From: an uncultured Gammaproteobacteria bacterium
GTDB lineage: Bacteria > Patescibacteriota > Microgenomatia > Levybacterales > JACOYD01
NCBI GenBank assembly: GCA_964445095.1
Contig: CAYUJR010000002.1
Span: 5,176 to 69,175 of the forward strand
DNA: 64,000 nt
Direction of reading: 5' to 3'
This document shows positions 7,109-64,000 of this stretch, piece after piece (the stretch's first letter is position 1; every line of letters begins with the position of its first letter). The translations under genes and the position numbers were made by a program. The notes beneath the pieces were generated by a model. It did not search any database. It was given only the letters and a program-made list of their open reading frames with translations, and had not been told where the DNA came from.

Positions 7109-7306
7109 CTGGATGACCTCCCTCTTTCATTTCTCCTTCGTCCTTTGGGACTATGGAAGGACACAGTAAAATTACGGAAGGGCAGGCACGCCGGTTTGCC
7201 CTGAGCGAGGCCAAAGGAAAGAAATTGCAATTGTGGAGGATAGTGTAGCACAGTAATTTTATGAAACAGATGAAAATTAAATTAGCAATTTTTGAAGGAA
7301 GTGAGT

Positions 7307-7325
7307 CGGTGACAAATTGTCACCG
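7307..7325. repeat. Perfect 19-nt palindrome CGGTGACAA-A-TTGTCACCG in the spacer after the defence-like operon
   Basis: Exact inverted repeat. No U-tract follows it, so it is more likely a protein-binding site than an intrinsic terminator. Confidence 0.6.
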
Positions 7326-7465
7326 TTTGAAAATGTTGGCTGTTTACGAGATAATTATTTACCAAGTAATATAATTAAAAAACTAAAATGAGCAATTATT
7401 ACAACATTTAAATTCCCGAGGTGTTTTTGGTTGCATTGCGGATATATTTCCATAAATAATACTAA

Positions 7466-7891
7466 ATGAATAAAGACAAAAGTTATACATGGAATGCCCC
7501 AGACAAAGAAGTTAGCCAGTTAAGCAGTAAAGAGATTGTAATAATATATATTCTTAAAAAGATTAGTCCCTATCTAACAACTCTAACAAGATTTTTCCCA
7601 TTCTCATTACTCTGGCAGGATCGAAGATTTCATTACAAACACAAAAAGATTGCTGACGCCGATGATCTTATTATTAAAATTGCCGGAGAAAAAGACTTTT
7701 GGTTTAAATTATTTTCTTACGATGAAGATGATCGTTTTTTAAACATTATCGGTAAATTTATACCTTTAAAAAAAGACTCTAGCAAAGATAAATTGTTCCA
7801 GTATTTTAGAAAGAAAATGGAGAATGAAGACTTTTATATAAATGACTTGGAGGATGGGAGAGTTAAAATTTCCTTAATGCAAAAGAAATAG
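7466..7891 (+). CDS. Hypothetical protein (AT-rich orphan)
   Basis: 141-aa ORF with no recognisable motif. Very AT-rich and isolated by a 357-bp spacer. Confidence 0.4.
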   Translation: MNKDKSYTWNAPDKEVSQLSSKEIVIIYILKKISPYLTTLTRFFPFSLLWQDRRFHYKHKKIADADDLIIKIAGEKDFWFKLFSYDEDDRFLNIIGKFIPLKKDSSKDKLFQYFRKKMENEDFYINDLEDGRVKISLMQKK

Positions 7892-8001
7892 ATATGAGAT
7901 TATAATCAAAACAAGCTGGTCCTTCGGTAGACTCAGGATAAAGGGATTTTGGAAATGTTTTAATTTTCGTTATACTTAAATAGTAGAGAGGAGGTGAGGA
8001 A

Positions 8002-8523: not shown

Positions 8524-8572
8524 TATAAGGAGAAATGGAGTTTTGGGGCTTTCTGAGGTATAATAGAGCCTG

Positions 8573-9709
8573 ATGTGGCAGAGCCTCAAAAACATCTATC
8601 ACTTGGCCATGGCGGTGGTGGCTAATTTGTGGTTTGGTTTTCCCTCAAAAAAGCTGACGGTCATTGGCGTGACCGGCACTGACGGTAAGACGACTACTGT
8701 TAACCTCATTTACCATATCTTAAAAACCGCCGGAAAACAGGTTTCGATGATTTCTTCGGTGGGGGCGGTTATTAATAGCAAAAATTATGAGACAGGTTTT
8801 CATGTGACCACTCCCTCTTCCTGGAAACTGCAAAAGTTTATCAAGAAAGCAGAAGGTTATTTAGTTCTCGAAGTTACTTCGCACGCTCTTGACCAGTACC
8901 GTGTTTGGGGCATAGATTTTGCAATTGGGGTACTGACTAATGTTACCAATGAACATCTTGATTACCACAAAACCTGGGAACAATATGTGAAAGTCAAATC
9001 AAAGTTGTTAAAAAACGCCAAGATAGCAATTGTTAATAAAGATGACAACTCCTACGGAGTAATTTCCAATTTCCAATTTCCAATTTCCAATAAATTAATT
9101 ACTTATGGATTAAAAAACTTTTCTTTTAAGACAAAATTGATGGGGGAGTTTAATAAATATAATATTTTGGCGGCGGCGGCGGCGGCAAAGACTTTAGGAA
9201 TAAAAGATCAAGTGATAAAAAAAGCAATAGCCAGTTTCCAATTACCGATTGGCAGGATGGAAGTTGTTTATAACGGCGCGTTTATGGTTATTATTGACTT
9301 TGCTCATACTCCAAACGCCCTAGAGCAAGCTTTATCGACAGTGAAAAAAAATGTTAGTGGTCGGTTAATTCATATTTTTGGTAGTGCTGGAGAAAGAGAT
9401 TTTCAGAAACGGCCGGAAATGGGAAGAGTTTCTAGCAAATACGCAGACATTATTATTTTGACTGCGGAGGATCCACGTTCGGAATCGGTTGATAAGATTA
9501 TCGAAGAGATTGAATCAGGAATTAAAAAGTCAGGAGTTTTGAGGGTTCAAAACAGGCAGGAGGCGATTAATACTGCTATTAAAATGGCCAAAAAAGGAGA
9601 TGTGGTGTTACTTACCGGTAAAGGGCACGAACAGTCGATGAATTATGGTCGGGGGGAGGAGCCGTGGAGTGAACATGAAGCAGTTAAACAAGCACTTAAA
9701 AAAAGTTAA
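8573..9709 (+). CDS. murE: UDP-MurNAc-L-Ala-D-Glu:meso-DAP/L-Lys ligase MurE (short form)
   Basis: GVTGTDGKTTT P-loop and DFAHTPNALEQAL (MurE DNAAHTPDAL-like) motifs. TATAAT at 8559-8564 sits only 8 nt before ATG 8573; the true start could instead be M at 8609. Confidence 0.85.
   Translation: MWQSLKNIYHLAMAVVANLWFGFPSKKLTVIGVTGTDGKTTTVNLIYHILKTAGKQVSMISSVGAVINSKNYETGFHVTTPSSWKLQKFIKKAEGYLVLEVTSHALDQYRVWGIDFAIGVLTNVTNEHLDYHKTWEQYVKVKSKLLKNAKIAIVNKDDNSYGVISNFQFPISNKLITYGLKNFSFKTKLMGEFNKYNILAAAAAAKTLGIKDQVIKKAIASFQLPIGRMEVVYNGAFMVIIDFAHTPNALEQALSTVKKNVSGRLIHIFGSAGERDFQKRPEMGRVSSKYADIIILTAEDPRSESVDKIIEEIESGIKKSGVLRVQNRQEAINTAIKMAKKGDVVLLTGKGHEQSMNYGRGEEPWSEHEAVKQALKKS
9062..9089 (+). repeat. (ATTTCCA)x4 heptanucleotide array, in-frame in murE
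   Basis: Four perfect units. With flanking bases it forms a 30-nt insert encoding ISNFQFPISN. Confidence 0.9.
9169..9186 (+). repeat. (GGC)6 trinucleotide repeat in murE (poly-Ala)
   Basis: GGCGGCGGCGGCGGCGGC encoding AAAAAA. Confidence 0.9.
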
Positions 9710-23106: not shown

Positions 23107-23161
23107 GGCTCCAATAAACTTTGCTACTGCGGGATTAAATGTAGTATAATAACCCAATCTT

Positions 23162-24169
23162 ATGCAGTTGTTGGGTTTAATTATACTTTCTACCTTTATC
23201 ACCGGTCTACTGCTTGTTCCTTTTATTGACTTTCTCTATAAGATGAAGTTCCAGCGGCAAAAGCAGAAGACACGGGATGTTTTTAATAGACATACTCCCA
23301 TTTTTGATAAATTTCATGCCTGGAAAGCCGGTACGCCTTTTGGCGGAGGAGTATTAATTTTAGCAGTAGTGACAGTTTTGACTCTGTGGGCCTACGGCAT
23401 TTTTGAGATTAACATCAAAGGCTGGGAGCTATTTGTTCTGCTTTTTTCTTTTCTGTCCTTTGGGGCGTTGGGATTTTACGATGACCTAAAAAAAATGATT
23501 AATGGCAAAAAGTCAGATTTTTTTGGATTGCGTTTTCGTTATAAATTTTTCATCCAATGGGTGCTGGCCTTTATTATCGGCACTATTTTTTATACTCAAC
23601 TCGGCTACGACTTTTTCTTCATCCGTTTTTTAGGCGAATTTAATATTGGAATTTTATACATTCCTTTGGCGGCTTTTATTATTGTTTCTTTTACCAATGC
23701 CTTTAATATTACAGATGGTTTGGATGGCTTGGCCGGCGGACTTTTCCTCATTTGCATGATTGCTTTCCTGGTTATTTCAGCCGGTTTATTAAATCAGTGG
23801 CTGGGAATTTTTATTGCCATACTAATTGGTTCAGTCATCGCCTTTTTATACTTTAATATTTTTCCGGCCCGGCTGTGGTTGGGAGACGTTGGCTCAATGT
23901 CTCTGGGGGCAATGCTGGCGGTAGTTGGACTTTTAACGGGAAAAATTACCGCTTTGGCTATTATCGGCGGCGTTTTTGTAATAGAAGTAGCTTCTTCTCT
24001 TTTTCAGATTTTGGCAAAGAGATTTTTAGGTAAAAAAATTCTGCCTGTCACCCCCTTTCATCTCTTTTTACAAAACCAGGGATGGGAAGAGCCCAAAATT
24101 GTGATGCGACTATGGCTGCTGGGAGTTCTTTTTGCCGTAGTAGGGCTCTTTATCGCCGGTATTAAGTAA
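23162..24169 (+). CDS. mraY: Phospho-N-acetylmuramoyl-pentapeptide transferase MraY
   Basis: NAFNITDGLDGLAGG signature and polytopic membrane topology. Confidence 0.92.
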   Translation: MQLLGLIILSTFITGLLLVPFIDFLYKMKFQRQKQKTRDVFNRHTPIFDKFHAWKAGTPFGGGVLILAVVTVLTLWAYGIFEINIKGWELFVLLFSFLSFGALGFYDDLKKMINGKKSDFFGLRFRYKFFIQWVLAFIIGTIFYTQLGYDFFFIRFLGEFNIGILYIPLAAFIIVSFTNAFNITDGLDGLAGGLFLICMIAFLVISAGLLNQWLGIFIAILIGSVIAFLYFNIFPARLWLGDVGSMSLGAMLAVVGLLTGKITALAIIGGVFVIEVASSLFQILAKRFLGKKILPVTPFHLFLQNQGWEEPKIVMRLWLLGVLFAVVGLFIAGIK

Positions 24170-31228: not shown

Positions 31229-31256
31229 ATAGCCTGCTGATATAGTCTCTGTTATA

Positions 31257-31856
31257 ATGCCGCTTATGTATATTTACTTTGAAGATTGGAGTGCTTTTAA
31301 GTGGATGCTTGGGGGAAAGGGTGTACCTAGAAGATTTATTGCAGATAGATTTATTAAGGCTATTGCTTCGGAAACTCACCCGCAAGACTTGGGATATAGC
31401 GGTGTGGTTTTGGAGTATGATGCAAATCCATTTAGGGCTGATTCGACATATGTAATTGGACCATCTGATAGCACGTTTACTTATAATGGACAAGAACTGG
31501 AAGAACAAATAGCAGCTTTAAGTTTAACGTATAATGAGAAAAACAGATTTCGGGCACTACTGCGTTTTGGATTCGATCAAAGATTAAAGTATGTTGAACA
31601 GGCAGTAACCACTGTAATTGGAGGAAGGCGATTAAAAGACCATCCGGTAGATACAGTAGATGTTCATTTAGATAAACGAACAGGTAGTAGGTTGCCGCAT
31701 TTTGATTTTTTTACAGAAGGAACTTTGGATAGGCTTAATAGAATAATAGGTTTTAGAGATAGGGAAAATATTTTGTTTTCTCCCCGTGAAGGTAGATTTT
31801 TTAGACAAGGAACTCCTCGAGCGCGGTTAGAAGGAAATAACATAATAAGAAGATAG
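31257..31856 (+). CDS. Hypothetical protein
   Basis: 199-aa ORF after ftsZ. No recognisable motif. Confidence 0.4.
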   Translation: MPLMYIYFEDWSAFKWMLGGKGVPRRFIADRFIKAIASETHPQDLGYSGVVLEYDANPFRADSTYVIGPSDSTFTYNGQELEEQIAALSLTYNEKNRFRALLRFGFDQRLKYVEQAVTTVIGGRRLKDHPVDTVDVHLDKRTGSRLPHFDFFTEGTLDRLNRIIGFRDRENILFSPREGRFFRQGTPRARLEGNNIIRR

Positions 31857-48847: not shown

Positions 48848-49537
48848 TTATTTACTTAAAATTTCAGAATGCATTACTCTAAAGGCCTGTGAGCTTCCGT
48901 CTTTAACAAATATTTCGGGTATCACTCCTAAGGGGGAAAGAGAAAGACTCTGCTTATGATAATCTACTTTAGTAGGTATACCATGGAGCGGAACACTAAA
49001 AGACCCACCAGCTTCTGATTCTAAAGCTGCCGTTACCCCTCCATTAGTAGCTGGTACGTTTATATATGGTTTGCCATCAATTAAAATATTTTCTAGATTT
49101 CTCTTGTCGTTCAAATACACTGCCGTAAAATTGCCGTCCAAACCTGATCGATAAATCAACCACGCTTGCCCTTTTTGATGATCAATTGCTTCCCAGGGGT
49201 TATTAACGATCTCTACTAAAGTACCACTGCCGCCTTTGTATCCCACAGCGGGACCAGTTTGAATATCATCTGAATATGCTGGGGAAGCAAACCATCTTAA
49301 TCTTGTAGCTCCTTTATTAATTGTCACAACTCCTCTAACTATTTCTAATGGTTGTCCAGGTTTTATCCTTTCTCTCATTAGTTCTTGAAATCTAATTGCT
49401 TCTGGGGGTAATTGTTCTTCCTGACGATATGCAAGACATGATGTCACTAGCAACGGAGAAACTACAACTAAACTACCTCCTAGTGAGAGTTTTTGTAAAA
49501 ATTTTCTTCGTGTGCTTCCGCGTTCCAACACCTGCAT
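48848..49537 (-). CDS. Hypothetical exported protein with twin-arginine signal peptide
   Basis: STRRKFLQKLSLGG matches the S/T-R-R-x-F-L-K Tat consensus. Confidence 0.55.
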   Translation of the reverse strand: MQVLERGSTRRKFLQKLSLGGSLVVVSPLLVTSCLAYRQEEQLPPEAIRFQELMRERIKPGQPLEIVRGVVTINKGATRLRWFASPAYSDDIQTGPAVGYKGGSGTLVEIVNNPWEAIDHQKGQAWLIYRSGLDGNFTAVYLNDKRNLENILIDGKPYINVPATNGGVTAALESEAGGSFSVPLHGIPTKVDYHKQSLSLSPLGVIPEIFVKDGSSQAFRVMHSEILSK

Positions 49538-49595
49538 AAGTAGAAGTATTATATCACACTATATCACATCTTGTCAAATAAAATGGTTATTGGCC

Positions 49596-50780
49596 TCATT
49601 TTAACTCAAAAGGTACTCTCACCATAGAATGAGGATTATCCCATATTCCTCGAGAGTAGACCAAAACTCCAGTTCTATCCGTAATTTGATCTGTAGGTTT
49701 ATTTAAAGACCAAAGGCTCGGATTACTGGCCCATAACTGACCTCTTTTATGAGGATATTGCCCTTGAGGAAATTTTAAGATAAGCTTAGCCTCGTCCCAG
49801 GTTAAACCATCGTTTGAAGTAGTTACGCAAAATCCAACATGCGTTTCAAAAACAGCCAGGTATTTACCTAAATAGGTATTATAGCTTACACTAGGGAGTG
49901 CGGCATACCCACTCTCCGCTATATCGGCTGGTATAGGAATAACTGGTGATACAGTAGTGGGGGAAACTTCAACTCCTTTTTGAAAACCATTTTTTGTATA
50001 ATGTTCGAAGGCTCCAACATTATCCCCTTTTACCTCTGTTCTAGAAAGGTGAATTTGATATTCTCGCCCTTCATGAGAAGGCCAATAAATATAATAAACA
50101 TAGACAAATCGCTTATCCCCTTCCTCTTTAATAATCGCACAAGGTTGACCTACTCCAGTAACATTTTTTCCAGGTTGTAATGCATCAGCTGCTTTTAAAG
50201 CAACTCCTTTATCCAACCAATTTTTTCCTCCATCAACTGATTCTAAAATACCAATAGTACTCGTGAAGTTACGATAATCTAAAGAACCATCTCTATTTGC
50301 CCATTGTTCATTGTGGGTTATCCCAAAAAGATGATTAGGATTTTCCTTGTTTAACTGAAGGATGCTTGTAATTGCAGTATATCCATTTCTATATTCCCCC
50401 CCCCTATCAGGGCCAACCACAGGTATGGCTTGTCCTTGCTGGTTACGTTCTCTTGGTATAAATAGACTTCCTTTATCTTCTAGCATGGCGAACGAAGCTG
50501 CATTTCCAGAAACATAATATTCCCGCCTTCCATCGGGAAAAGTTATATAAGGAATATGGCCGTCGGGAGTCCAGTTGATACCATATTTTGACAGCTGAAT
50601 TGGTTCCTCTTTACCAAGCATCATCAAATCATTTTCCGGAGTTTCAAATCCTCCTCTGGTTGACCGTTCATTAACAAGCAGTGCGCCTCGTCCTAGAGCA
50701 ACAGCTCCCAATCCAATCGCTCCCCATTTAATTGCAGTTCGTCGAGTTATTTGAAGTCGTTTAGGTGTATCTTCTGCCAT
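49596..50780 (-). CDS. Tat-signal exported protein, beta-propeller/glycosidase-like (function unknown)
   Basis: ITRRTAIKWGAIGLGAVALG Tat-type leader. Rich in W/Y/G, as in propeller folds. Confidence 0.45.
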   Translation of the reverse strand: MAEDTPKRLQITRRTAIKWGAIGLGAVALGRGALLVNERSTRGGFETPENDLMMLGKEEPIQLSKYGINWTPDGHIPYITFPDGRREYYVSGNAASFAMLEDKGSLFIPRERNQQGQAIPVVGPDRGGEYRNGYTAITSILQLNKENPNHLFGITHNEQWANRDGSLDYRNFTSTIGILESVDGGKNWLDKGVALKAADALQPGKNVTGVGQPCAIIKEEGDKRFVYVYYIYWPSHEGREYQIHLSRTEVKGDNVGAFEHYTKNGFQKGVEVSPTTVSPVIPIPADIAESGYAALPSVSYNTYLGKYLAVFETHVGFCVTTSNDGLTWDEAKLILKFPQGQYPHKRGQLWASNPSLWSLNKPTDQITDRTGVLVYSRGIWDNPHSMVRVPFELK

Positions 50781-53700
50781 ATTTTATTAAATACATTATA
50801 GCCGATATTATGAGCAATAGAAAGCCTAGATACTCGAGGTATTGGGGAAGATAAAGAATGACGAGGCTGGAAGCTGGAGGCTGGAAGCTGGAATTATTCA
50901 GCACCCATCCATTAGCCCAGTTGTTAACTAGGACGTGGTTTTTAATTTCTCTACCAAACACCATTGGTAGTATTTGACATTTGACATTTGACATTTGACA
51001 TTGATACGCTTTCCATCCTGTGTCATAAGACTGGGAAAGAACAAGGACGGGATTATTAATTGTTAAATTGTTAAATTGCTCAATTGTTATGGAATAAAGA
51101 CTGGGGTTGGGGTGATTGACCTCGAGCTCGGTTAATCTGACAGGAAACTGGTTAGTGCTTGATTTTTTCAAAACCAGACCGGTTAGGAATTTATAGGGGA
51201 TGGGGTTGACAGTAATTTTACCCAGTTCATTAGTGGATTTTTCTTTACCGATTGAGACATTGTCAAAATGGAGGACGTATCCTACCCCGTCTTTTTCCAT
51301 GGGAGGCTGGATAAAATAGCTAGACGCTAAATGCTTGCTGCTAGACGCTGGTAAATAAGTTTCAATGTCGGCACGTCTCGAGTTGGGGTTTTCCAGCCAA
51401 AAAAGAATAGGGCGACCAGAGATGTTTTTAGTTTCCGCTGTAATAAGGTAGGCCATGTCATGCGTCAAATTGGGTAGATTAAAAGCGGTACAGTTACTGT
51501 TATTTATTAACGTCAATCGCAAGAAGCCGCGGACAACATTGTCGCAATTGACAGTAGTCGGTTCAATCTCGGCACTGAAGTAGCCGCCGGCTTTGGGAAC
51601 TTTGACCTCGATATTTTTGCCGTCAAAAAAGACATCAAGCGGCACGGTTTTTGTTTGAGACAAGTCATTGGGGTCAACCCAGGTTAAGATTTGACTACTT
51701 GGTGGTGGCACTTCTAAAACATAGTTGTCGCTACCGGCAGGTAGAGTTTTACTAAAGGCAAAATAATCGCCCCTGTCTTCTACCGTAAATTCTAAATCTT
51801 GTTGGCTCCTGCCCGTAAATAAACTCCTAAATGGATAGTAAAAACTGGAAGCTGGAGATTGGATGCTAGAAGCTAGATAATAACCATTATCATTAAAGGC
51901 GCGGTCGTAATTATTCCATTTGTAAATGGGGCCGGTAGTAGCGAGATTTTCTGCCAAAAAGACAAAGTTGTTAACCGGCGCTTCAAGATTTACTCGATAA
52001 ACTTTAATTTTGCCTGCTTGCGCAGGCGAGCCGAATTGTTGGGTTAGGGTGACTTTATTTGAATTTTTAAGCGTCTCTTCCAATTCATCCAGATAAAGCG
52101 CCTTGGAAGAGGGAGGATTAATAATATTTTCATCAACCAGCAGCCACCTGATTTGATATTTTTCAAGGACATTTTCAAGTAACGCAGGATTTTTAGAATA
52201 AACAGCATAAGAAGCTTCCCAATAATAATTCTCATTATATGGAGACCACCGGTCAAATTCCCGATCGAGCAACGGTTGTTTTAAACCAAACCACAAAAAT
52301 CCTGCACCTTCATACTGCCAATCATAGTAAGCCCAGCCCCAAAAAGTATGGACGGGAAATTCGGCAATTCTGCCTGTTGTTTCCTGCTTGTTTAACCAGT
52401 TAAACATAGCAAAATACTCCTTTGGTATTTGTACTTTCATGCTATGACTGATTAAGTTTCCTTTAAATGCTGGCCACATATAATAAACAAGGGCAATTAA
52501 TATAGTTAAAGCTTGTAGTAAATAAAGTATTCGTTCTTTTTTTACCCTTTTAATTAATAGTCCAGTTAGCCAATTCAAGGCAACTGCAAAATAAACGGTG
52601 TAAGCAAAGAGTAGTAAAATAGAAAATTTAGTAAAGGGAAAGCGGAGAGCCTCTCTAAAAAAGGGGACCTCATTTTGTAAAAAGGCAAAAATTTCTCTAA
52701 AAAGCGGCAGATCATTAGCAATAAATAAAAACGAGACAATAAAAACAGGTAAAATTGCTAAACCATACTTTTCTTGTCTGCGAAATACTATAGCTATTCC
52801 TCTTAAAACTAAAGTAAAAATACCGTAAGCAATAAAATTTGCAATCGGGCTATTTAGATGTGGAGTCCACTCATCAAATAAACTAATAGATTCTTGTTTT
52901 TTGTCATCATATTCTCCCCAGTCAAATAAAAAGTTTTTCAAAATTGCCGTGTCTTTGATGGTGCCAAATTGTCTGCCAGTTAAAAAAGCTTTTTCCGAGA
53001 ATTGAGTATGAATTTTTGAGTCGACTACATCCTTGCCGTGACTTGCAACAAAATAAATATTAGGCAATAACCAGAAGCTATTTAATACGAGAGTGGTCAG
53101 TAGAATTAACAAAGCTCGCCGAATAGTCTCCTTGAAAGAGAAAAAGGCTAAAGTACTAATATATAATAGTAAACCCAAAAAATAGGCATAAAAAAGCGTG
53201 GCGGTGTGGGCCATAGAGGTTGACAGAATAGTTATTAATGAGAAAAATATCAGATTTCTGCTTGTTCCATTCTCTAAATATTTACTGGTAAAAAGAAATA
53301 GCCAGGGAAGGGTGGCAAAGTGGGTGGCAAACATCTCCAGCGGTACATAATAATGTTGAAGGGTAGCTAGATTTAAAAGATATAGCAGAGCTCCACTAAA
53401 AGCGGCTGTTTGGCCAGCTATGCGGGGCAAGTTTTTTAAAATAACCCGTTCTAGAAAAAAGTAAGTCCCCAGCGTGCCAGCAATTAGAGTCAAGAAAAAA
53501 TAGCCGTAGCGCAAAAATGAGTCGGGAAGAATAAGCGAAGATAAATAATAAATAAACATTCGGGGAAGCTCCGAAGCATGGGCTTGCGAAGCAACAGCCC
53601 CCAGTCCTTGATGTTCTTGCCAAACACCAAAGAAAATTCGTTTAAAATAAAGTCCAAAGTCAAACTCCGGATGTAGCGTATCCCAACCGGAAAGATAAGT

Positions 53701-53793
53701 GCCAGGCGAATAATTTACCCAACAAATAATAACAGTAAGAATAAATAATGCTAAAGGAAAAATATTTCTTTTAAATATTGGAGATATTCGCAT
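50761..53793 (-). CDS. Large (1010 aa) polytopic membrane protein with huge extracytoplasmic domain; GT-C-like (YfhO/AftD-like) candidate
   Basis: About 12 N-terminal TM helices, then roughly 550 aa soluble, then a C-terminal TM. Carries three heptamer-array inserts (50866-50893, 50973-51000, 51846-51877). Confidence 0.5.
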   Translation of the reverse strand: MRISPIFKRNIFPLALFILTVIICWVNYSPGTYLSGWDTLHPEFDFGLYFKRIFFGVWQEHQGLGAVASQAHASELPRMFIYYLSSLILPDSFLRYGYFFLTLIAGTLGTYFFLERVILKNLPRIAGQTAAFSGALLYLLNLATLQHYYVPLEMFATHFATLPWLFLFTSKYLENGTSRNLIFFSLITILSTSMAHTATLFYAYFLGLLLYISTLAFFSFKETIRRALLILLTTLVLNSFWLLPNIYFVASHGKDVVDSKIHTQFSEKAFLTGRQFGTIKDTAILKNFLFDWGEYDDKKQESISLFDEWTPHLNSPIANFIAYGIFTLVLRGIAIVFRRQEKYGLAILPVFIVSFLFIANDLPLFREIFAFLQNEVPFFREALRFPFTKFSILLLFAYTVYFAVALNWLTGLLIKRVKKERILYLLQALTILIALVYYMWPAFKGNLISHSMKVQIPKEYFAMFNWLNKQETTGRIAEFPVHTFWGWAYYDWQYEGAGFLWFGLKQPLLDREFDRWSPYNENYYWEASYAVYSKNPALLENVLEKYQIRWLLVDENIINPPSSKALYLDELEETLKNSNKVTLTQQFGSPAQAGKIKVYRVNLEAPVNNFVFLAENLATTGPIYKWNNYDRAFNDNGYYLASSIQSPASSFYYPFRSLFTGRSQQDLEFTVEDRGDYFAFSKTLPAGSDNYVLEVPPPSSQILTWVDPNDLSQTKTVPLDVFFDGKNIEVKVPKAGGYFSAEIEPTTVNCDNVVRGFLRLTLINNSNCTAFNLPNLTHDMAYLITAETKNISGRPILFWLENPNSRRADIETYLPASSSKHLASSYFIQPPMEKDGVGYVLHFDNVSIGKEKSTNELGKITVNPIPYKFLTGLVLKKSSTNQFPVRLTELEVNHPNPSLYSITIEQFNNLTINNPVLVLSQSYDTGWKAYQCQMSNVKCQILPMVFGREIKNHVLVNNWANGWVLNNSSFQPPASSLVILYLPQYLEYLGFLLLIISAIMYLIKYGRRYT
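50866..50893. repeat. (GCTGGAR)x4 heptamer array inside the 1010-aa membrane-protein gene
   Basis: The minus-strand reading TTCCAGC TTCCAGC CTCCAGC TTCCAGC encodes SSFQPPASSL. Same family as the glmS array. Confidence 0.9.
50973..51000. repeat. (TTTGACA)x4 heptamer array inside the same gene
   Basis: The minus-strand reading (TGTCAAA)4 encodes QCQMSNVKCQ. It is one transition away from the GT2 ATATCAA unit. Confidence 0.9.
51846..51877. repeat. Degenerate heptamer array (CTGGAAG CTGGAGA TTGGATG CTAGAAG) inside the same gene
   Basis: The minus strand encodes ...SSIQSPASSF... Confidence 0.6.
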
Positions 53794-53801
53794 ATTGTAA
53801 G

Positions 53802-54716
53802 TTAAGTTTTTATTGCACTGGGTGTACTAGGTATTATTGGATTTTGGAATGGAGTTGTTAAAATTTTAGTGTATATAAAGTAATAAAGATTATTAACAGT
53901 CTGCGGTGGGAAAAATTCCGATAACGCTTCAGCGAAAAAATTATAACCGTGAAGTGCGTATTTTATTATATCAAAAACAAATCGACTATCACGATATCTT
54001 TCTAAGTCTGAAGGCGTCAGGTTATCGCCGCTTCTTCCTCTGCTAGGACGACCTAAAGTTGACGACATATCTGAGTAGAACTTACATTTTTCTTGTACTT
54101 CAGGCTCCAGTCTATCACAACCGCCGCTTTCTAGAGCTCGTTTATTAAAAATACTGTATTTTTCTTCAATCCTTTGATATAACTCGCCCTCCGGATTTCT
54201 TAACTCTGAAAGTTTTTTACCTAATATTCTCTCAACGTTTAGTACCCATGGCGTCCAACCTGCAGGGCTAAGACCATCAGGATGATTTCTTGGTATCCAG
54301 AGATCCACCAACTTTTCAAGAAATGTTTCATGAAATCGAAATTGTGGATAGTTTTCAGGTAAAAATTGGTCTGGGAATATTTGTATAGCATACTCGTGTG
54401 GAGATAAATATTCACCTCTATTTTCCCTAATTATTTTTAAACGCAAACCCTTAGATTCGTTTCTGTAAAAGTGACGGGGAATTCTGTCTAAAGATGATTC
54501 CAATAGATCGAGCTCCTGTTTATGCCAGTAGCCTGCACGAACATCTGCAGAAAAATTAATATCAAATCTTATTGCAATCTCACGTTCTAGTTGTTGCACT
54601 GTTTGAAGCTCTGTAGGTTCTCTAAAGACATGAAAATTCTCTACGGCTTTTCCTACAGCTAAACCTGCCAAACTTGCTGATGCTCCAATAATTAACTCTC
54701 TTCGTGTGAATGGCAT
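53802..54716 (-). CDS. Hypothetical exported protein with Tat-type signal
   Basis: FTRRELIIGASASLAGLAVG leader. Confidence 0.5.
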   Translation of the reverse strand: MPFTRRELIIGASASLAGLAVGKAVENFHVFREPTELQTVQQLEREIAIRFDINFSADVRAGYWHKQELDLLESSLDRIPRHFYRNESKGLRLKIIRENRGEYLSPHEYAIQIFPDQFLPENYPQFRFHETFLEKLVDLWIPRNHPDGLSPAGWTPWVLNVERILGKKLSELRNPEGELYQRIEEKYSIFNKRALESGGCDRLEPEVQEKCKFYSDMSSTLGRPSRGRSGDNLTPSDLERYRDSRFVFDIIKYALHGYNFFAEALSEFFPPQTVNNLYYFIYTKILTTPFQNPIIPSTPSAIKT

Positions 54717-54733
54717 AGACGAAGTATAGCATA

Positions 54734-56308
54734 CTATAAGTCTTTTATCAAGGTGATTTCATAGATGGATAAATTATCTCCATCAGGTAAGGAGTATTGT
54801 TTAATTAGCTTTACTTTCTCAGGGTAAGAATGAATTAAATATTCTTTTAATTGTTTTAGGATAGATAAATGACGTAGCACACCTTCTGGGCCAAAGCTTT
54901 CATTTGGAATCAAAACGTAATCAAAATAAGCTAAATATGCCTTCATTTTTGATGTTTCAGTAAACGGGTTTAAATTGTAAGGAGCCCTAAATTTTATGGA
55001 AGTATTTCTCTGTTTTCTCTGATGTAGTTCTAAATTCATTGCATTAAGCTCACTTTTATCGACTAAAACTAAAACTTTTATGAGCTCATTCGAATTTATT
55101 GAGCTTAAGTCAGCAATAATTTGCTTGTGGGGCCAGACCGTTGTTTCATGTTTCGGGGCCAAATATTGACTGGTGTTTTTACCCAAGTTAATATAGTCAA
55201 TCCAACCGACTATAGGAAGCTTAACTGCTCTTTGATAGTCAACTATTTTGGGATTGAAAGGAAAGCCAAAAGACAGACTAAAGAAATATAGAAAAAAATA
55301 TAGGCCAACGAATAGACTTATCAAAATACCCCAAAATTTTATAGCATTAATTATTTTTAATAACAGAAAGCCAATAGCCATTGAGGCAAAAGGTAATATA
55401 GGTAAAATATAGCGCGGGTCCTTATTGGGAATAAAGGTAAAAATGAGATAAATAGAGAATATAACTACGGTAATTAAAATACCCTTTTCTCTTTTGGTAT
55501 AAATAAGCACCGGAATAGCTACCAAAAGTAGGATTATTCCTAGCCAGGTTAAATGAAAGTTAACTAAAATCGACAAATAATAAGTAAAATTTGGTATACT
55601 TAATAGCGCCTGAGGATCAACTGCTTCAGCTGTAAAACTGACTTTTGCCCGGTTTAATATATTAGTAAAATTAATAAGATACCAGGGTAAACTGATTAAG
55701 GCAACTGTGCCTAACGATATGAACAAGTTTTTTAGATGAATTTTTTTAAGCGAAATTATAATAGGAATTAATAAATAAACTATTGCTACCCATTTTGTTA
55801 GCAGAGCAAAGCTTAAGAAAATTGTTGCTAATAATGAAGTTCTTAGATTCGCAAATTTTTTTGATTTTTCCAGGAAATATAAACTACCTAAAATCAAGGC
55901 TATCAGCGGTATTTCTAGTAAAAAATTCCGGGACTGGCTATAGACAACAGGTAAAAAAGAGAAAAAAAGAGCTGAAAATATGGCTATTTTCCCATCATTA
56001 AAAACTTCTTTGGTGTAAAGATATAAGAAACTTATTGCCATAAGGAAAAACCCAGTTACCACTAAAGGCCCAATTAATAGCAGTGGTCCAGTAAAAATCA
56101 TTATTAATGCAACTATAAGATGTGCTAATGGTGGATAATAATCCGAAATCTGGAAAAAATTAACTTGACCTTGACCTTTAAAGAAATCTACGAGGTCAAA
56201 AGAGATTAGAGTATGGCCTGCTTGATCCCAAGCTAAAGGTGATTTATCAAGTAAGATCCAAATTAAATTAGCCAGAAAATGAAAAGCAAGAAGTAGAAAC
56301 AACGGCAT
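54734..56308 (-). CDS. GT-C fold glycosyltransferase (ArnT/PMT family-39/83-like)
   Basis: Polytopic, with an N-terminal loop ...DKSPLAWDQAGH... resembling the GT-C catalytic loop. 524 aa. Confidence 0.55.
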   Translation of the reverse strand: MPLFLLLAFHFLANLIWILLDKSPLAWDQAGHTLISFDLVDFFKGQGQVNFFQISDYYPPLAHLIVALIMIFTGPLLLIGPLVVTGFFLMAISFLYLYTKEVFNDGKIAIFSALFFSFLPVVYSQSRNFLLEIPLIALILGSLYFLEKSKKFANLRTSLLATIFLSFALLTKWVAIVYLLIPIIISLKKIHLKNLFISLGTVALISLPWYLINFTNILNRAKVSFTAEAVDPQALLSIPNFTYYLSILVNFHLTWLGIILLLVAIPVLIYTKREKGILITVVIFSIYLIFTFIPNKDPRYILPILPFASMAIGFLLLKIINAIKFWGILISLFVGLYFFLYFFSLSFGFPFNPKIVDYQRAVKLPIVGWIDYINLGKNTSQYLAPKHETTVWPHKQIIADLSSINSNELIKVLVLVDKSELNAMNLELHQRKQRNTSIKFRAPYNLNPFTETSKMKAYLAYFDYVLIPNESFGPEGVLRHLSILKQLKEYLIHSYPEKVKLIKQYSLPDGDNLSIYEITLIKDL

Positions 56309-58049: not shown

Positions 58050-58676
58050 TCATCTTTTCTTTACTCTTACTAAATAAACACCACTTGTCAAAGCGAGAAG
58101 AGAGAGAACGGTAAATAATATAGTATGTTCTGGGCCGGTGGGCGGAAGAACCGGAGCGCCTTTTTGGGGAAGAACTTTGCGCTCCAGACAAACTTGGGCG
58201 GTGTCGCGGTCTTTATCCTCGCCGCTTACCGCTTCTGCCACATTGACTACGCATACTACGCTTTTGTCTTTAGGAAATTTATCAGCTCCGGCCACTTTGA
58301 CTTTTATCTCCTGCTCTTTTTCTTCGCCCACTTTCAAGTCTTTAATTTGAAATTGGGGATTACCGTCAGTTTTTAAGAGGTCCGGCAGAATATCTAAAAC
58401 ATTGATGGCGTCAAAAGTGTTGTCTCCCACATTTTTAACTTTAATTTTAAAAGTAACTTGTTCGCCAGGGGAGAATTTGTGGTCGTTAAGACCCAGGTTA
58501 TCCACAAACTTTTTATTGCGGGGATCAAAAACTTCTTTATTAACCTGCAGTTTACCGGTTCTAATGCAAACTTCTTTTCCTCCATATTGAGTTTCGCAAC
58601 GAACAGCCGCCAGCGATGGTTTTACCAGAAAAAAACCCGCCAACATAATTATTAATAATATAGAAAAGGTCTTCAT
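58050..58676 (-). CDS. LPXTG-anchored cell-wall surface protein (sortase substrate)
   Basis: Sec signal peptide. C-terminal LPPTG, then a hydrophobic stretch and a KKR tail. Upstream promoter: TTGACA (plus-strand 58737-58742, reverse complement), 17 bp, then TATAAA (58714-58719). Confidence 0.8.
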   Translation of the reverse strand: MKTFSILLIIMLAGFFLVKPSLAAVRCETQYGGKEVCIRTGKLQVNKEVFDPRNKKFVDNLGLNDHKFSPGEQVTFKIKVKNVGDNTFDAINVLDILPDLLKTDGNPQFQIKDLKVGEEKEQEIKVKVAGADKFPKDKSVVCVVNVAEAVSGEDKDRDTAQVCLERKVLPQKGAPVLPPTGPEHTILFTVLSLLALTSGVYLVRVKKR

Positions 58677-58761
58677 AAAAACAAAAACCTACCATTTAGG
58701 CAGATTAAGAACTTTTATAGCAATAATTTATTAGTTTGTCAAGTAAGAGCTTTGTAAGAGT

Positions 58762-59557
58762 TTAGTCTGTCAATACGGGCTCCGCGACAATTATTAATCT
58801 CTTCCAAGTAGTGCCGGGCGGCCAGCAGGTTTGTAAAATCAGGCGCTGGCTGCCGTTACTGCTTTTTGTTAACCAAGAAGTGTCATTGGCTGCGGTAACA
58901 TGTTTTTGCGAAACTTTATATTTGTAGGCTTTGTTTAGAAAAAAAACATAAATTTCATCATTTGGCTCTAGCTCCCGTAGCAGATAAAAAATAGCATTAT
59001 ATTGGGAAACGTTCCAGGCCACATCGGTTGAATGAGCAAACAGATAAGTTGCGCCATCTATGCCGGGAAAGCGGGAGCCGGCCGCGTGAGCCACTCCTCT
59101 CATTAATGCCTCCTTCATGGCCTCCGGATTACTGGGGTCAACGTTAGAAATAACTGGGGCTCGAGCATTAATTTTAGGAATATACAAAGAAAAGTTAGTA
59201 TTTTGGATGTTAAATTGAGTAGCTAATTTTTGCGTTTCATAAAAATCTTGATTAATGGCCGCCTCATATTCATTTTGAGCTAGTAAAAAGGAGAAACCGC
59301 TAAAACTTTGTTGTTGGGGAGCGACCTTGGTTATTTGACCGCTTCTATAATTTAATTCGGCAGACACCACCGGCCAAAAAGTGATTAAAATTCCGGCCAG
59401 AGCCGCCACTATCAATCCATGGCCAAACAGCCGGACAATCCGCCAGGTCAGACGGCGGATAGTTTCCCTTTTCTCCTCAAAAATCACCCCGCTGGTTTTT
59501 AGCATAAAGGTAAATTCAATTATAGCACGTTGAAGCCACAATTGTTTAACTTGCATT
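58762..59557 (-). CDS. Sortase (C60 cysteine transpeptidase)
   Basis: N-terminal TM anchor, His in YLFAHST, catalytic LILQTC (TLxTC-type). Adjacent to the LPPTG protein gene. The ORF is open to 59823; start placed at ATG 59557. Confidence 0.6.
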
Positions 59558-59590
59558 TTACTTAAACCTATAGTATACTTATTTACAAAT

Positions 59591-61438
59591 ATGAATGAAC
59601 GTTCTACCGCAGTTGAGCAGTTTAGATTGTCAAGAAGAAGTCTTTTGGGTTTAGGAGCAGCGTCAGCATTAGGTGGGATAGCTGCTGGACCAATTACAAG
59701 AGTATTACAATACGGAGATAGTATTCGATTTATGTTGGATAGAAGGTCGTGGAACACAGAAGAAAATTCATACTTTCCGCCAGTTCCAGACAATATATTA
59801 TCTAGAGAAGCATCTGACCGCATTCTTGATGCATTAAATCTCGTAGCAGAAAATCAGTATTCTCATACAATTACACCAGAAGCATTTCAGGTAATTATTC
59901 AACGCCCCGCCAGAATTGCTAGTTTATACTTCCACCCTAACGAAAATAAAACCCTGCAAGAAACAGATAGGGATTTTGCTGATCATTGTGTACGATTTTT
60001 TACTGCTATGAAGAGCCAGGCTGATTTTATGGAAACGGATTTTATCGCCACCTTGCTAATGTACCAAGTTTCAGGTGACGCCAATTCAACCCAACGAGCA
60101 TTTAATAAAGATATCATGGAAGAACGAGTACGTGTTGCATTAAATATAGCAAGGAAGGAACTTGGACCTATCGCATCAGATGCGCTGATCAATATTTTGA
60201 GAGAAACAGAATTATTAGATTTTGCAGTACCATATTATGCAATGCCTCGGTTGGAGGGAGTTGTAACTATGGGCATTCATGATATAGAGACGGTTATAAC
60301 AGCACGTTCCCTAAGAGATTTTGAACAAACGTTGCCAGATAAATGGATACAAGTAGCTCATTATCTAAAAACTCGTGCTCCAAAATTTTTTTCACAATAT
60401 GGTAGTTACGCTGAAATGTATGACCAGTTTGAGGCAGAATCGGAACAGCTTAAACAAGACTTAATGAGCTTACCTCAATTTGGTGAATATCTTAGTAGAT
60501 TATATACACCTGAAGTTATGCGAAGAATTCTCACGACGGATGATCAGGTAGATGCCTATCAATTACAAAGAACCACACTTTTTTGGGCGAATGTTTCAGA
60601 GATTAATGTCAAGAATGGGTTTGCGATGCAAGCGCCTGGTAGAAAAAGAACTGAACAGCAAGCGCTTGAGCGCACCCTTCAACAATATGTGCAAGCAGGA
60701 TCACCAATCCCTTTTTTCTTAGACCAAATTTTAAACCCCAAAATACTACAAATGATTTCGGCCGATGCTAATCGTGGTAATACGACAGCCCAGGAGCTCC
60801 TTGCTAGGTGTAAAAAGTTTGAAGCTGATGGCGAGCGACTAATTGTTGCAGATCGAGCAATAATTGCGGCACTTGCCGAAGAACAGACTGAACAAGATAT
60901 GCAATTCCAACTTGTTACAGGGCAAGCATATGTACGGATGTTACTCCATGATGCATACACATTTACTCATAGAAAATCCCCTAAAGATGGGAAAATTAGG
61001 TATGATAATTCTGACGAGCTTGCTTATGATGCGTTTATGGCAAATGGGAACCGTGAAAATTCACCAACATATCAGCTTGCAGGAACGCGGCCTCTGCATC
61101 GTGCGACATTACCCTTTAGAACACCCGATATAGAATTTGATACAATGCAAGACTTTATTGAACAAGTTTATAGGCAGGTTGAAACGCTAGATCCACAAAT
61201 GGACTTTAAGAAATTTTCTAATTATTTATTTCTACTACTTATTGAGCGTTTTCTAGAACCATTTATAGGAATAAAAAATTACTATCCATCTATAGACCAG
61301 GAAAGCGCAAGAAGGGCATCAGTATTTCTTCATAAAGCAGAGGCATTCGGTGTAGATAGAAAAATAATCACGCCACCACATTGCAACTGGATGCGTGCTA
61401 TTGAAGCAACTACGGGGTACATTAACACTATGCAGTAA
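59591..61438 (+). CDS. Large hypothetical exported protein with Tat-type signal
   Basis: LSRRSLLGLGAASALGGIAAG leader. 615 aa. TATACT sits 11 nt before the ATG. Confidence 0.55.
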   Translation: MNERSTAVEQFRLSRRSLLGLGAASALGGIAAGPITRVLQYGDSIRFMLDRRSWNTEENSYFPPVPDNILSREASDRILDALNLVAENQYSHTITPEAFQVIIQRPARIASLYFHPNENKTLQETDRDFADHCVRFFTAMKSQADFMETDFIATLLMYQVSGDANSTQRAFNKDIMEERVRVALNIARKELGPIASDALINILRETELLDFAVPYYAMPRLEGVVTMGIHDIETVITARSLRDFEQTLPDKWIQVAHYLKTRAPKFFSQYGSYAEMYDQFEAESEQLKQDLMSLPQFGEYLSRLYTPEVMRRILTTDDQVDAYQLQRTTLFWANVSEINVKNGFAMQAPGRKRTEQQALERTLQQYVQAGSPIPFFLDQILNPKILQMISADANRGNTTAQELLARCKKFEADGERLIVADRAIIAALAEEQTEQDMQFQLVTGQAYVRMLLHDAYTFTHRKSPKDGKIRYDNSDELAYDAFMANGNRENSPTYQLAGTRPLHRATLPFRTPDIEFDTMQDFIEQVYRQVETLDPQMDFKKFSNYLFLLLIERFLEPFIGIKNYYPSIDQESARRASVFLHKAEAFGVDRKIITPPHCNWMRAIEATTGYINTMQ

Positions 61439-61489: not shown

Positions 61490-62674
61490 CTATATTTTAA
61501 GGGGTAACTCCAGAATAAATGTAGAACCTTTCTGTAATTTGCTATAAATCTTAACTCTTCCCTTATGAGCTTTAATAATTTGAGAAGAAATATATAAACC
61601 TACCCCTAAACCGTTTGAGTGTTTGTTTGAATAATCAGTTCGTTTGAAAAGATCAAAAATAAGCTCTTGATCTTTTGGGGAAATTCCAATTCCCTGGTCT
61701 TTTATAGCAAGTCTGGCTATATTCTTATCATTTGATATTTGAATACTAATAGGTTTACCTTCTCCATATGCAATAGCATTTGATAAAAGATTAGTTATTG
61801 CTTGCTCGAGTCTTGCTTTATCAAATTTTCCCGAAACAGCAGAATTTGCTTCAAATTTTATTTTATATTTCTCCTTTTTTAAAATTTCCGAAAAATTTTC
61901 TAACACTTTTTTTGTAATCTGGACCAGATCAGTTTCTTCCGGTTTCAATTTCATCCTACCTGTTGTTATAAGGGAAATATCTAACAAATCATTAATCATT
62001 GCGGTTAGATTCTTTATCTGTTTTTCAGAAATTTTTATTACTTTCATAAGCTGGGGAACAGAAAAATTGGCAAAGGAAACATTTTGAATAGTATTCAACA
62101 AATTGTGTAGCTTAAGAAGCATTATAGTGAGAGGAGTTCTTAACTCATGAGACACAACAGAGAGAAACTCATCCCTTGCCTTAATTTCGCTTTGAGCTTT
62201 TGTATATGCGTCATGAAGTTGCACGAGTGAAAGTGCATAACTTTTTTCTTGCCTTTTTAGCCTGTTTATAATATTTGTTCGTCGAATACTATCTATAAGT
62301 AAACTCGCTACTACAGCACCGATGATAAAGAAGACAATTTCTAGAGATAAACCTATTCCAAATTTGAAAAAAGCCACCACAGAGATGATTATAGTTGCTA
62401 AAAGAGCAGGGCTTAAACCGCCAATACCGCCGCAAAGTAACACAAGAATAAGATAGAAAATAAAAATCGGCGTCTTATCGGGATAGAGTTTTACTAAAGG
62501 GGTTACAAAATAAGCAACCACGGAAACGGTAATAGAAAATCCGTATGTAATAAAAATATTTAACCATCTATGCGATATATACTTTTTTGAATACGTATAT
62601 AATTTTGTATATGATTTTTTTTGAGCATTTAGACTATTTTCCATATAGAAAAGCTTTCTAAAATATCTACCCAT
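61490..62674 (-). CDS. Sensor histidine kinase (DUF4118/KdpD-like membrane sensor + HisKA + HATPase_c)
   Basis: H-box VSHELRTPLT. N, G1 and G2 boxes (NAIAYG, KDQGIGI, GLGVGLYI). Four N-terminal TM helices. Confidence 0.85.
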   Translation of the reverse strand: MGRYFRKLFYMENSLNAQKKSYTKLYTYSKKYISHRWLNIFITYGFSITVSVVAYFVTPLVKLYPDKTPIFIFYLILVLLCGGIGGLSPALLATIIISVVAFFKFGIGLSLEIVFFIIGAVVASLLIDSIRRTNIINRLKRQEKSYALSLVQLHDAYTKAQSEIKARDEFLSVVSHELRTPLTIMLLKLHNLLNTIQNVSFANFSVPQLMKVIKISEKQIKNLTAMINDLLDISLITTGRMKLKPEETDLVQITKKVLENFSEILKKEKYKIKFEANSAVSGKFDKARLEQAITNLLSNAIAYGEGKPISIQISNDKNIARLAIKDQGIGISPKDQELIFDLFKRTDYSNKHSNGLGVGLYISSQIIKAHKGRVKIYSKLQKGSTFILELPLKI

Positions 62675-62746
62675 GGAATATACCAGCTTTTTTTATTTAA
62701 TTCAAGAAAATCTACTAGTTAGCTAATGTGGTATAATCCAGGTAAA

Positions 62747-63673
62747 ATGAAAAAAACAATCCTTATCGTAGAGGATGATGCGGATTTAAGGGTTTTTTTA
62801 CGTAAAATTCTAGCGGCAAATAACTTCAGAGTGTTAGAAGCTGCTGATGGAGCAGAAGCTTTAGAAAAAGTAGAAAACGAATTGCCTGAATTGGTAATAT
62901 TAGATTTTGGGTTACCCCTTGTCCCCGGAGAAACTGTTTGTGTCAAAATTAAAGAAAATCATCCTGAAATAATTGTAATTGCAGTTACTGAAAAAAAACT
63001 AAGCTCTGATGTCGTCCGTGGTTTACAAATTGGAGCAGATGATTATATCAGCAAGCCTTTTGTGGCCGAAGAATTGATTGCCAGAATTGATGCAAGACTA
63101 AAAAGCGTAAAAAGTGAGGACGCTCCTGTCAAAACAAAATCACAGGATCTAAAATCAAATGAACCTAGATTGGTATTTAGGGAAAGTGTTGTTTTAATTG
63201 CCATAAGACTTATTATGGTTGAACTGCTTTTTGGGCTGACAATAGTTTTATCAACCTCACTTTTTTCTTTCCTAGGAACTCTTTTACAAACATCTAATAC
63301 TTTTGCCTTGAATTCAATTATTCTAGTTACAATATTTATTTCTAATATAGTATTTGTGGTTTTTATTATACTGAAGTGGGGATCCGAATTTATTGAATTG
63401 ACTCAAGATAGCCTGATTAAACATAAGGGGATCCTTAACAAAACAGAAGAGAAATATGCCTGTAACTTTGTAGAAACAATTACCATTGAGCAATCTATGC
63501 TTGGAATTATGTTCAATTATGGAACAATAGAGTTATATGACCCGGCTCTAAAAGAGCGGATTTATCTTGTAAATATAGCGAGTCCAAAAAAATACAGAGA
63601 GATTATAGAAAAAAGAGTTTCCAAAGGTCGGGATCGGCCAATACCATTTGTTGCTCAGCAAGAGGGGGGATAA
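62747..63673 (+). CDS. Response-regulator receiver fused to a membrane-anchored bPH-like (YdbS/YdbT-type) domain; no DNA-binding output
   Basis: REC domain: ILIVEDD, phosphoacceptor D in LVILDF, and K in ISKPF. Then two TM helices and a roughly 100-aa domain with bPH_2-like features. Extended -10 TGgTATAAT at 62729-62737; ATG 62747 preferred over 62726. Confidence 0.7.
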   Translation: MKKTILIVEDDADLRVFLRKILAANNFRVLEAADGAEALEKVENELPELVILDFGLPLVPGETVCVKIKENHPEIIVIAVTEKKLSSDVVRGLQIGADDYISKPFVAEELIARIDARLKSVKSEDAPVKTKSQDLKSNEPRLVFRESVVLIAIRLIMVELLFGLTIVLSTSLFSFLGTLLQTSNTFALNSIILVTIFISNIVFVVFIILKWGSEFIELTQDSLIKHKGILNKTEEKYACNFVETITIEQSMLGIMFNYGTIELYDPALKERIYLVNIASPKKYREIIEKRVSKGRDRPIPFVAQQEGG

Positions 63674-64000
63674 TATGTTTGAAGTAAAAGAGGTTCAAGC
63701 AAAATCTATTCTGACAGAGACACATCTGAAAGACGCTGACTTTGACTATAGCGTCAATCCTTACATTGGTTGTCGTTTCGGCTGTATTTACTGCTATGCC
63801 AGTTTTATGGGAAGGTTTGTGGGAAAAAAAGTAAAGGATTGGGGAGAATATGTTTATGCCAAAGTCAACGCCCCAGAGTTACTCGAGAAGGAAATTAAGA
63901 AATTAAAGAACAAAGGTAAAGGTAAGACAATTTGGTTTAGTTCAGTCACCGATCCATATCAAGGACTAGAGATGAAATATCAATTAACCAGAAAATGCTT
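63674..64000 (+). CDS. Radical-SAM protein, SPL/DNA-photolyase-like family (3' truncated by window edge)
   Basis: CRFGCIYC is a CxxxCxxC cluster in the context typical of the spore-photoproduct-lyase family. The ORF runs off the window end. Confidence 0.7.

Follow-up and report, generated by a model that had tools for sequence, protein, structure and literature searches.

A divergent two-component gene pair was analysed in a 64,000-nucleotide stretch of DNA (hereafter the window; contig CAYUJR010000002.1, positions 5,176 to 69,175 of the forward strand), the source of which, from its composition (34–44% GC) and its homologues, is a Microgenomates genome of the Candidate Phyla Radiation (CPR/Patescibacteria). 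The pair consists of a histidine kinase (HK; 61490–62644, minus strand, 384 amino acids, aa) and a response regulator (RR; 62747–63673, plus strand, 308 aa plus stop codon). Judged by its sequence, RR consists of a complete YdbS-like membrane PH protein with a receiver attached at its N-terminus. The interpretation we favour, at a probability of roughly 0.6, is that HK and RR form a cognate pair in which phosphorylation-driven dimerisation of the receiver would alter the way in which the membrane PH module assembles, or the conformation that it takes.

The N-terminal part of RR is a receiver (REC) domain of the OmpR/PhoB lineage (residues 1–125, 62747–63121, plus strand), with D9/D10, D53, T81, Y100 and K103 as its key residues. 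Pfam detected Response_reg (PF00072) over residues 5–114 with E = 7e-26 and 91 bits, against a cut-off of 30.2. The original prediction, made from the sequence alone, had pointed to the aspartate of LVILDF and the lysine of ISKPF in the receiver. These correspond to D53 (codon 62903–62905) and K103 (codon 63053–63055), and both were found to be invariant in 72 homologues, together with D10 and Y100, while T81 was at least 90% conserved. The spacing of T81, Y100 and K103 is the same as that of T87, Y106 and K109 in CheY. NCBIfam matches were to MtrA, PhoB, OmpR, WalR and similar regulators, with E-values of 1e-29 to 1e-18, and were confined to residues 1 to about 140. The best matches among PDB sequences, as found by phmmer (E = 3e-21 to 1e-18), were to the receiver of Bacillus subtilis PhoP (3e-21), followed by MtrA, ArlR, YycF and PhoB; no PDB sequence matched RR past approximately residue 135. 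Matches of RR to PADLOC defence models were partial receiver matches only, and were disregarded.

The remainder of the protein was modelled with AlphaFold2 (AF2) on the 72-sequence alignment, giving a mean predicted local distance difference test score (pLDDT) of 78.9. A second AF2 model, of residues 138–308 alone, produced the same elements as the full-length model. The receiver is followed by an acidic, disordered linker (residues ~122–140, 63110–63166, plus strand), with pLDDT below 50 at residues 124–138 and a length that varies between 22 and 38 residues among the homologues. Next comes a short β strand (residues 142–146, RLVFRES; 63170–63184, plus strand), assigned as strand by DSSP in both models. 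R145, E146 and S147 form a nearly invariant RES motif, which is conserved in the RR family and in stand-alone relatives alike. A transmembrane (TM) helical hairpin (63188–63385, plus strand) follows, with helices at residues 148–180 and 186–213 and a short uncharged outer loop, as predicted from hydropathy, AF2 and charge counts; the two TM helices proposed in the original prediction were thus recovered by both hydropathy and structure prediction. The chain continues into a bacterial PH domain (bPH_2; residues 214–296, 63386–63634, plus strand), predicted to be cytoplasmic, in which six strands and a C-terminal helix span residues 215–296 of the AF2 model, and ends in a disordered C-terminal tail (63635–63670, plus strand).

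Assignment of the output as a PH domain is supported by Pfam, structure prediction, fold search and profile search, in agreement with the bPH-type domain of about 100 residues that had been proposed. The Pfam match to bPH_2 (PF03703; residues 216–286; E = 7e-5) is marginal, its 23.4 bits lying just above the gathering score of 22. In structure prediction and in a fold search, the last ~100 residues fell into the PH superfold, with Foldseek matches of the PH domain that include 3dcx and 3hsa. PDB sequences searched with a sequence profile of the C-terminal module yielded nothing meaningful. The conserved motifs of the domain are W211, SEYxE, KYACNFVE and NYGTIELYDPALKE. An invariant cysteine lies in KYACNF (residue 239, 63461–63463) and is common in stand-alone relatives too, and the tail carries a nearly invariant P-x-P-F motif (P300, F301; residues 300–301 at 63644–63649).

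When the pre-membrane strand is included, the AF2 model contains the canonical seven strands and C-terminal helix of a PH domain. The strand at residues 142–146 probably supplies β1, by pairing with the PH sheet. Since DSSP assigns this segment as a strand even in a model without any other sheet, the membrane hairpin may be regarded as an insertion in the β1–β2 loop of the PH domain. Family DUF304, now bPH_2, has been said to be without strand β1 (PMC2817789), whereas the AF2 model suggests that in RR the strand before the hairpin would take this place. Across the 72 sequences, the mean number of lysine and arginine residues was 3.15 before TM1, 0.03 in the loop between the helices and 2.82 after TM2. 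From this charge distribution, RR is predicted to adopt an N-in/C-in topology, with the receiver and the PH domain both cytoplasmic.

No helix-turn-helix (HTH) or winged-helix family of Pfam matched RR, even at E ≤ 1. Among the 72 homologues, Response_reg was found in all and bPH_2 in 65 at E ≤ 0.01, while Trans_reg_C, HTH or any other DNA-binding family was found in none at that threshold. The lack of DNA-binding families across the family and the presence of the PH module support the original suggestion that the output is a protein or membrane interaction rather than transcription.

The origin of the output module was traced with a profile of RR residues 138–308, searched against 1.84 billion cluster representatives. 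Matches were obtained to 1499 clusters at E ≤ 1e-3, of which 473 passed E ≤ 1e-10. Among the top 150 matches, nearly all were stand-alone proteins of 165–200 aa, aligned from profile position 2–7 to ~155–165, so that the match runs from the pre-membrane strand through the hairpin into the PH domain. A receiver was present in only two representatives, P0126 and P0128 (313–318 aa). The stand-alone relatives, linked to RR at E-values down to 1e-42, score 32–45 bits for bPH_2, and carry the database names 'PH domain-containing protein [Candidatus Roizmanbacteria]' and 'membrane protein YdbS with pleckstrin-like domain'. They share with RR the motifs hhhR[ERKQ]S, W, YYEI, Y.C..IE and F.YGT..LY.P.L. 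It is this end-to-end match, together with the common motifs, that points to RR as the product of joining a receiver to an intact YdbS-like protein.

Two variations were seen among the relatives of the module. Proteins P0139, P0144, P0150, P0153, P0160 and P0190 (230–255 aa) possess a conserved N-terminal extension of 70–85 residues with the motif QDF..WL...PL..LQD.Y. No Pfam match to this extension was found in P0139, the one member tested; it may represent a further regulatory element attached to this module. In P0124 (221 aa), the first ~30 residues of a receiver (MKTVLVVDEDG...) are fused to the linker and PH module, and the receiver appears to have decayed. The neighbourhoods of two stand-alone relatives were uninformative.

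In plan, the output module resembles YdbS of B. subtilis (COG3402) and DdE of Enterococcus faecalis, small membrane proteins that each combine a pair of TM helices with a single bPH_2 domain. Likewise, the last 170 residues of RR comprise a short cytoplasmic segment, a two-helix hairpin and a cytoplasmic bPH_2 domain, the comparison with B. subtilis YdbS being one of plan only. A study of the sigma-W regulon has reportedly tied YdbS/YdbT to intrinsic antimicrobial resistance. Export of a leaderless bacteriocin depends on DdE and DdF, the homologues of YdbS and YdbT (PMC8657885). Unlike YdbS and DdE, the RR module bears an N-terminal receiver, pairs with HK and has no adjacent YdbT-like or transporter gene. 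An adjacent YdbT-like partner with three PH domains is typical of ydbST and ddEF loci; no such partner was present in the window or in the related loci examined. Another comparison is with the bacterial PH domains of PF08000 (PHb1, PDB 3dcx and 3hsa; PHb2, PDB 3b77), which form 5- and 12-membered rings (PMC2817789). The same work predicted membrane PH families, including DUF304, to be intracellular and to be possible pores or transporters (PMC2817789). The RR output shares the PH superfold with PF08000, but falls in another Pfam family and has no detectable sequence similarity to it.

Compared with OmpR/PhoB regulators (PhoP, MtrA, YycF/WalR and PhoB), RR has the same type of receiver, including the α4-β5-α5 region GADDYxxKPF...EL.ARI, and the same flexible linker, but no winged-helix Trans_reg_C; a membrane hairpin and a PH domain are found instead. 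Homologues of RR are often annotated 'response regulator transcription factor', and because of this replacement the name is probably wrong for the family, so that the present description corrects a recurrent database label. CheY, PleD and RssB-type adaptors are soluble response regulators with outputs that do not bind DNA. As with these, phosphorylation of RR would be expected to control protein–protein or protein–membrane events; unlike them, RR is an integral membrane protein by prediction. Full-text searches of the available literature found no description of a receiver–bPH_2 fusion or of a membrane-integral response regulator. The architecture is visible in precomputed Pfam annotations, yet appears to be uncharacterised. 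Non-transcriptional outputs of two-component systems and YdbS-like proteins were already known; the novelty lies in the combination of a receiver with a YdbS-like module, in the siting of that combination in the membrane and in the fact that it is conserved lineage-wide in CPR.

Full-length homologues of RR, with 52–99% identity, make up more than 120 protein clusters drawn from independent assemblies. The C-terminal part is therefore not a separate open reading frame (ORF), as the fusion is conserved throughout these clusters. Those homologues with a named source came from Levy-, Davies-, Curtiss- or Roizmanbacteria or from unclassified Microgenomates. Genomic context was compared in approximately 40 loci from species-representative genomes and metagenomes, 36 of which had enough upstream sequence to be informative. 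An orthologous HK (43–64% identical) lay directly upstream and in divergent orientation in about 32 of the 36, so that RR and the divergent kinase occur together in ~90% of informative loci. No other neighbour was conserved beside RR in the loci examined.

The kinase has a standard catalytic core. Its HisKA/DHp domain (E = 2e-12; 61961–62179, minus strand) contains the putative phospho-accepting His166 within SHELRTP, a sequence that is invariant across HK orthologues and also carries the H-E-x-x-T phosphatase motif. The catalytic ATP-binding domain, HATPase_c, occupies residues 275–383 (E = 7.9e-25; 61496–61822, minus strand). Upstream of the core, the membrane sensor region (residues ~28–118, 62291–62563, minus strand) has four TM helices with minimal loops, as predicted from hydropathy, and consists of membrane helices only, with no extracytoplasmic domain. 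The original prediction had described this sensor as DUF4118-like. The DUF4118 (PF13493) match in HK reached 15.6 bits against a cut-off of 28.4, and is below threshold; weak matches recurred in 6 of 11 HK orthologues at E ≤ 0.1, with a best E-value of 3.6e-5. The resemblance to DUF4118 is thus weakly supported, and the firm description of the sensor is that it is purely membrane-embedded.

Four orthologues of HK (L007, L010, L015 and L016) have two TM helices in place of the four found in the window, and alignment showed the difference to be a clean deletion of ~50 residues. Every form of the kinase carries a conserved cytoplasmic N-terminal motif, LY.YSKKYIS, ahead of the membrane helices. 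Intramembrane-sensing kinases and DUF4118 sensors (LiaS/BceS type; KdpD membrane domain) share with HK a HisKA/HATPase_c core that comes right after 2–4 membrane helices, without an external domain. HK differs from these in that DUF4118 is below cut-off, that four orthologues have two helices, and that the partner RR is itself a membrane protein. With membrane helices as its only sensor, HK would most likely respond to something in or at the membrane.

The architecture of RR, its phosphorylation residues and predicted topology, the conserved pairing and the promoter geometry described below are established, and around them a course of phosphotransfer, dimerisation, effect on the PH module and control of a cellular process may be proposed. 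HK would phosphorylate D53, and the receivers would then dimerise through α4-β5-α5, the face used by OmpR/PhoB regulators. With so flexible a linker, proximity or release of occlusion would be expected to carry the signal, and not a rigid helix. In consequence, the membrane PH modules would change in their closeness to one another, their oligomeric state or their conformation; related bacterial PH domains form rings. The output would not be transcriptional: a membrane process, for example transport, permeability or envelope protection, would be altered directly and post-translationally. Both genes would be expressed from back-to-back promoters that rely mainly on the −10 box, with an RR mRNA that is leaderless or nearly so.

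Several points weigh against this scheme. The inter-domain confidence of the AF2 model was low (predicted template modelling score, pTM, 0.44), and the long disordered linker means that there is no rigid coupling between receiver and output. The bPH_2 score of RR from the window is only just above threshold. Genes for a YdbT-like partner, an ABC transporter or a peptide are not conserved close to RR, which speaks against a carry-over of YdbST/DdEF function. Pairing with the kinase is not obligatory either, as three lineages (L001/L002/L032, L023 and L026) have RR without an adjacent HK. In L001/L002, a low-complexity ORF of 321 aa (6980–7945) occupies the place of the kinase, with synteny otherwise conserved (CTP synthase, L19, UvrB, LexA). 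This ORF was considered as a degenerate kinase and rejected, having no Pfam match, no TM segment and no real similarity to HK. In L017 (5039–6435), a deletion has removed the 5′ end of the HK gene (~30 codons), the promoters, the receiver, the linker and half of TM1, so that the kinase abuts an RR C-terminal module that starts mid-TM1. The L017 locus, which comes from one MAG, represents either a system that has become a pseudogene or an error of assembly.

It is also possible, if rather unlikely, that the PH module is a tether or co-sensor and not an output. In such an arrangement the module would hold the receiver by HK, or would sense the state of the membrane and feed back on the kinase; the receiver itself would act as a phosphate sink or would signal to a soluble partner. 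Accessory membrane proteins of intramembrane-sensing kinases offer a comparison. HK has no sensor domain beyond its 2–4 membrane helices, the number of which varies among orthologues, and an additional sensor would be compatible with this. However, the module is a complete and strongly conserved copy of an abundant stand-alone family, which implies an activity of its own. HK and RR are both membrane-embedded and co-conserved, and either the LY.YSKKYIS motif of HK or the P-x-P-F tail of RR could be a docking site, as a tether would require. KYACNFVE and NYGTIELYDPALKE, on the other hand, are constrained at least as much as the receiver. The lack of a conserved downstream target nearby is consistent with a tether or co-sensor, while the retention of an intact fusion in lineages without HK argues against it.

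Clearly more doubtful is the proposal that the pair specifically controls the export of small membrane-active peptides, or immunity to them, in parallel with YdbS/YdbT and DdE/DdF, a function that would be turned on by phosphorylation. The sole experimental phenotypes of bPH_2 membrane proteins do concern membrane-active peptides, in resistance or export (PMC8657885), and the RR module is YdbS-like. However, the likeness to characterised proteins is one of plan, the PDB profile search of the module was null, and neither RR nor the stand-alone relatives examined have a conserved neighbour that encodes a YdbT-like protein with three PH domains, an ABC transporter or a small peptide. The notion that RR is a transcription factor with a cryptic DNA-binding element, as its OmpR/PhoB-type receiver and the name often given to its homologues might imply, or that the fusion is an artefact of assembly or frameshift, is effectively refuted, as DNA-binding families matched no member, nothing past residue 140 is left over once the strand, the hairpin, the PH fold and a tail of 12 residues have been assigned, and the same uninterrupted frame recurs in the independently assembled clusters and loci.

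Returning to the favoured interpretation, that of a cognate pair acting on a membrane PH module, a more specific form of it can be put forward tentatively. The receiver–YdbS fusion might be a phosphorylation-gated membrane ring or pore, by which the kinase would control permeability, or the export or uptake of cargo, directly and within seconds, no transcription factor taking part. Were this rather improbable version true, the system could be a main route by which small, regulator-poor Microgenomates genomes respond to the environment or to a host cell, and would offer, for the first time, a switchable way into the function of the very widespread bPH_2/YdbS family. More generally, integral-membrane response regulators are rare, and RR is not a one-off; the type is common in Microgenomates and occurs in several of their lineages at 52–77% identity, usually with its kinase and in genomes with few regulators. 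The family suggests that signalling in Microgenomates can bypass transcription. RR may also be a naturally occurring form of the YdbS-like membrane PH module that can be turned on and off; this module has been linked to antimicrobial-peptide resistance and bacteriocin export.

The limits of the two genes were refined by comparison with homologues. ORF analysis gave HK at 61490–62674 (minus strand) and RR at 62726/62747–63673 (plus strand), and these ORFs, with their Pfam domains, confirmed the divergent pair of the original prediction. All RR homologues, in alignments of 27 and of 72 sequences, start with M[QK]KTIL, which corresponds to ATG 62747. The upstream ATG 62726 was rejected as the start because its seven-codon extension is not conserved among homologues. 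The HK orthologues all start with M[EK]N/S at the second methionine, M11, which corresponds to ATG 62644. The start at 62674, which opens the longest ORF and had been adopted previously, was rejected, since the closest relative, L005, is without a start codon at the upstream position and the orthologues begin at M11. With these starts, the divergent intergenic region that holds the back-to-back promoters is 102 bp (62645–62746). The earlier figure of a 52-bp control region had been derived from the longest ORFs, and clashes with the ATG at 62747 that was given in the same prediction. No further receiver, kinase or PH-module gene was found in the window.

The predicted RR promoter is an extended −10 box, TGgTATAAT (62729–62737, plus strand), ending 9 nt before ATG 62747; both positions are those originally reported. 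Each of the 38 loci compared has a TATAAT box, mostly preceded by TGn, whose end lies 6–11 nt (mode 7) upstream of the RR start codon; this codon may be ATG, GTG or TTG. No conserved Shine–Dalgarno (SD) sequence was seen ahead of RR in these loci, and the rest of the spacer has diverged. At this distance, the predicted transcription start lies at the start codon or within ~3 nt of it. The geometry supports a predicted RR mRNA that is leaderless or has a leader of ≤3 nt, and the leaderless start proposed in the original prediction, itself a predicted one, gains comparative support. Such strict spacing of promoter and start codon offers a concrete instance in which possible leaderless translation in CPR, GTG and TTG starts included, can be examined. 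A search of the literature on leaderless genes in CPR found nothing relevant.

The predicted HK promoter, identified by a promoter scan, is TTGAAT-17 nt-TGgTATATT (62677–62705, minus strand), with its −10 hexamer at 62682–62677. A TATATT box was present upstream of the HK start in 10 of 13 loci, in most of them within a shared AGTCTGnTATATT motif. Its distance to the HK ATG is more variable, being 32 nt in the window, 11–14 nt in five of twelve orthologous loci and 20–66 nt in four others. Elsewhere in the window, a TATAAT box stands 7–11 nt upstream of the first start codon of four other long ORFs, which lack an obvious SD sequence (8559–8575, 23145–23164, 31253–31268 and, on the minus strand, 49537–49558). 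Given this similar geometry, the genome as a whole probably tends towards short or absent leaders, which would then not be special to the RR gene.

Genes adjoining the pair were also inspected. A radical SAM gene (CxxxCxxC, Pfam E = 2e-7; 63675–64000, plus strand) begins 1 nt past the RR stop codon. Its strong SD-like sequence, GAGGGGGG, lies within the 3′ end of RR (63662–63677), an indication that this organism does employ SD sequences within operons. The radical SAM gene was rejected as a functional partner of RR, as it is not downstream of RR in other loci. On the other side of the pair, a sortase gene (Pfam E = 6e-21) stands beside a gene for a small DUF11 surface protein with an LPXTG anchor (58050–59823, minus strand), the two forming a cell-wall protein-anchoring cassette just upstream of the two-component genes. 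Large GT-C/PMT-like glycosyltransferase genes are located further upstream (50761–56308). Between the sortase gene and the kinase is an ORF of 615 aa (59591–61438, plus strand); it has no significant Pfam match, and its N-terminus (LSRRSLLGLGAASALGG) resembles a twin-arginine (Tat) signal peptide.

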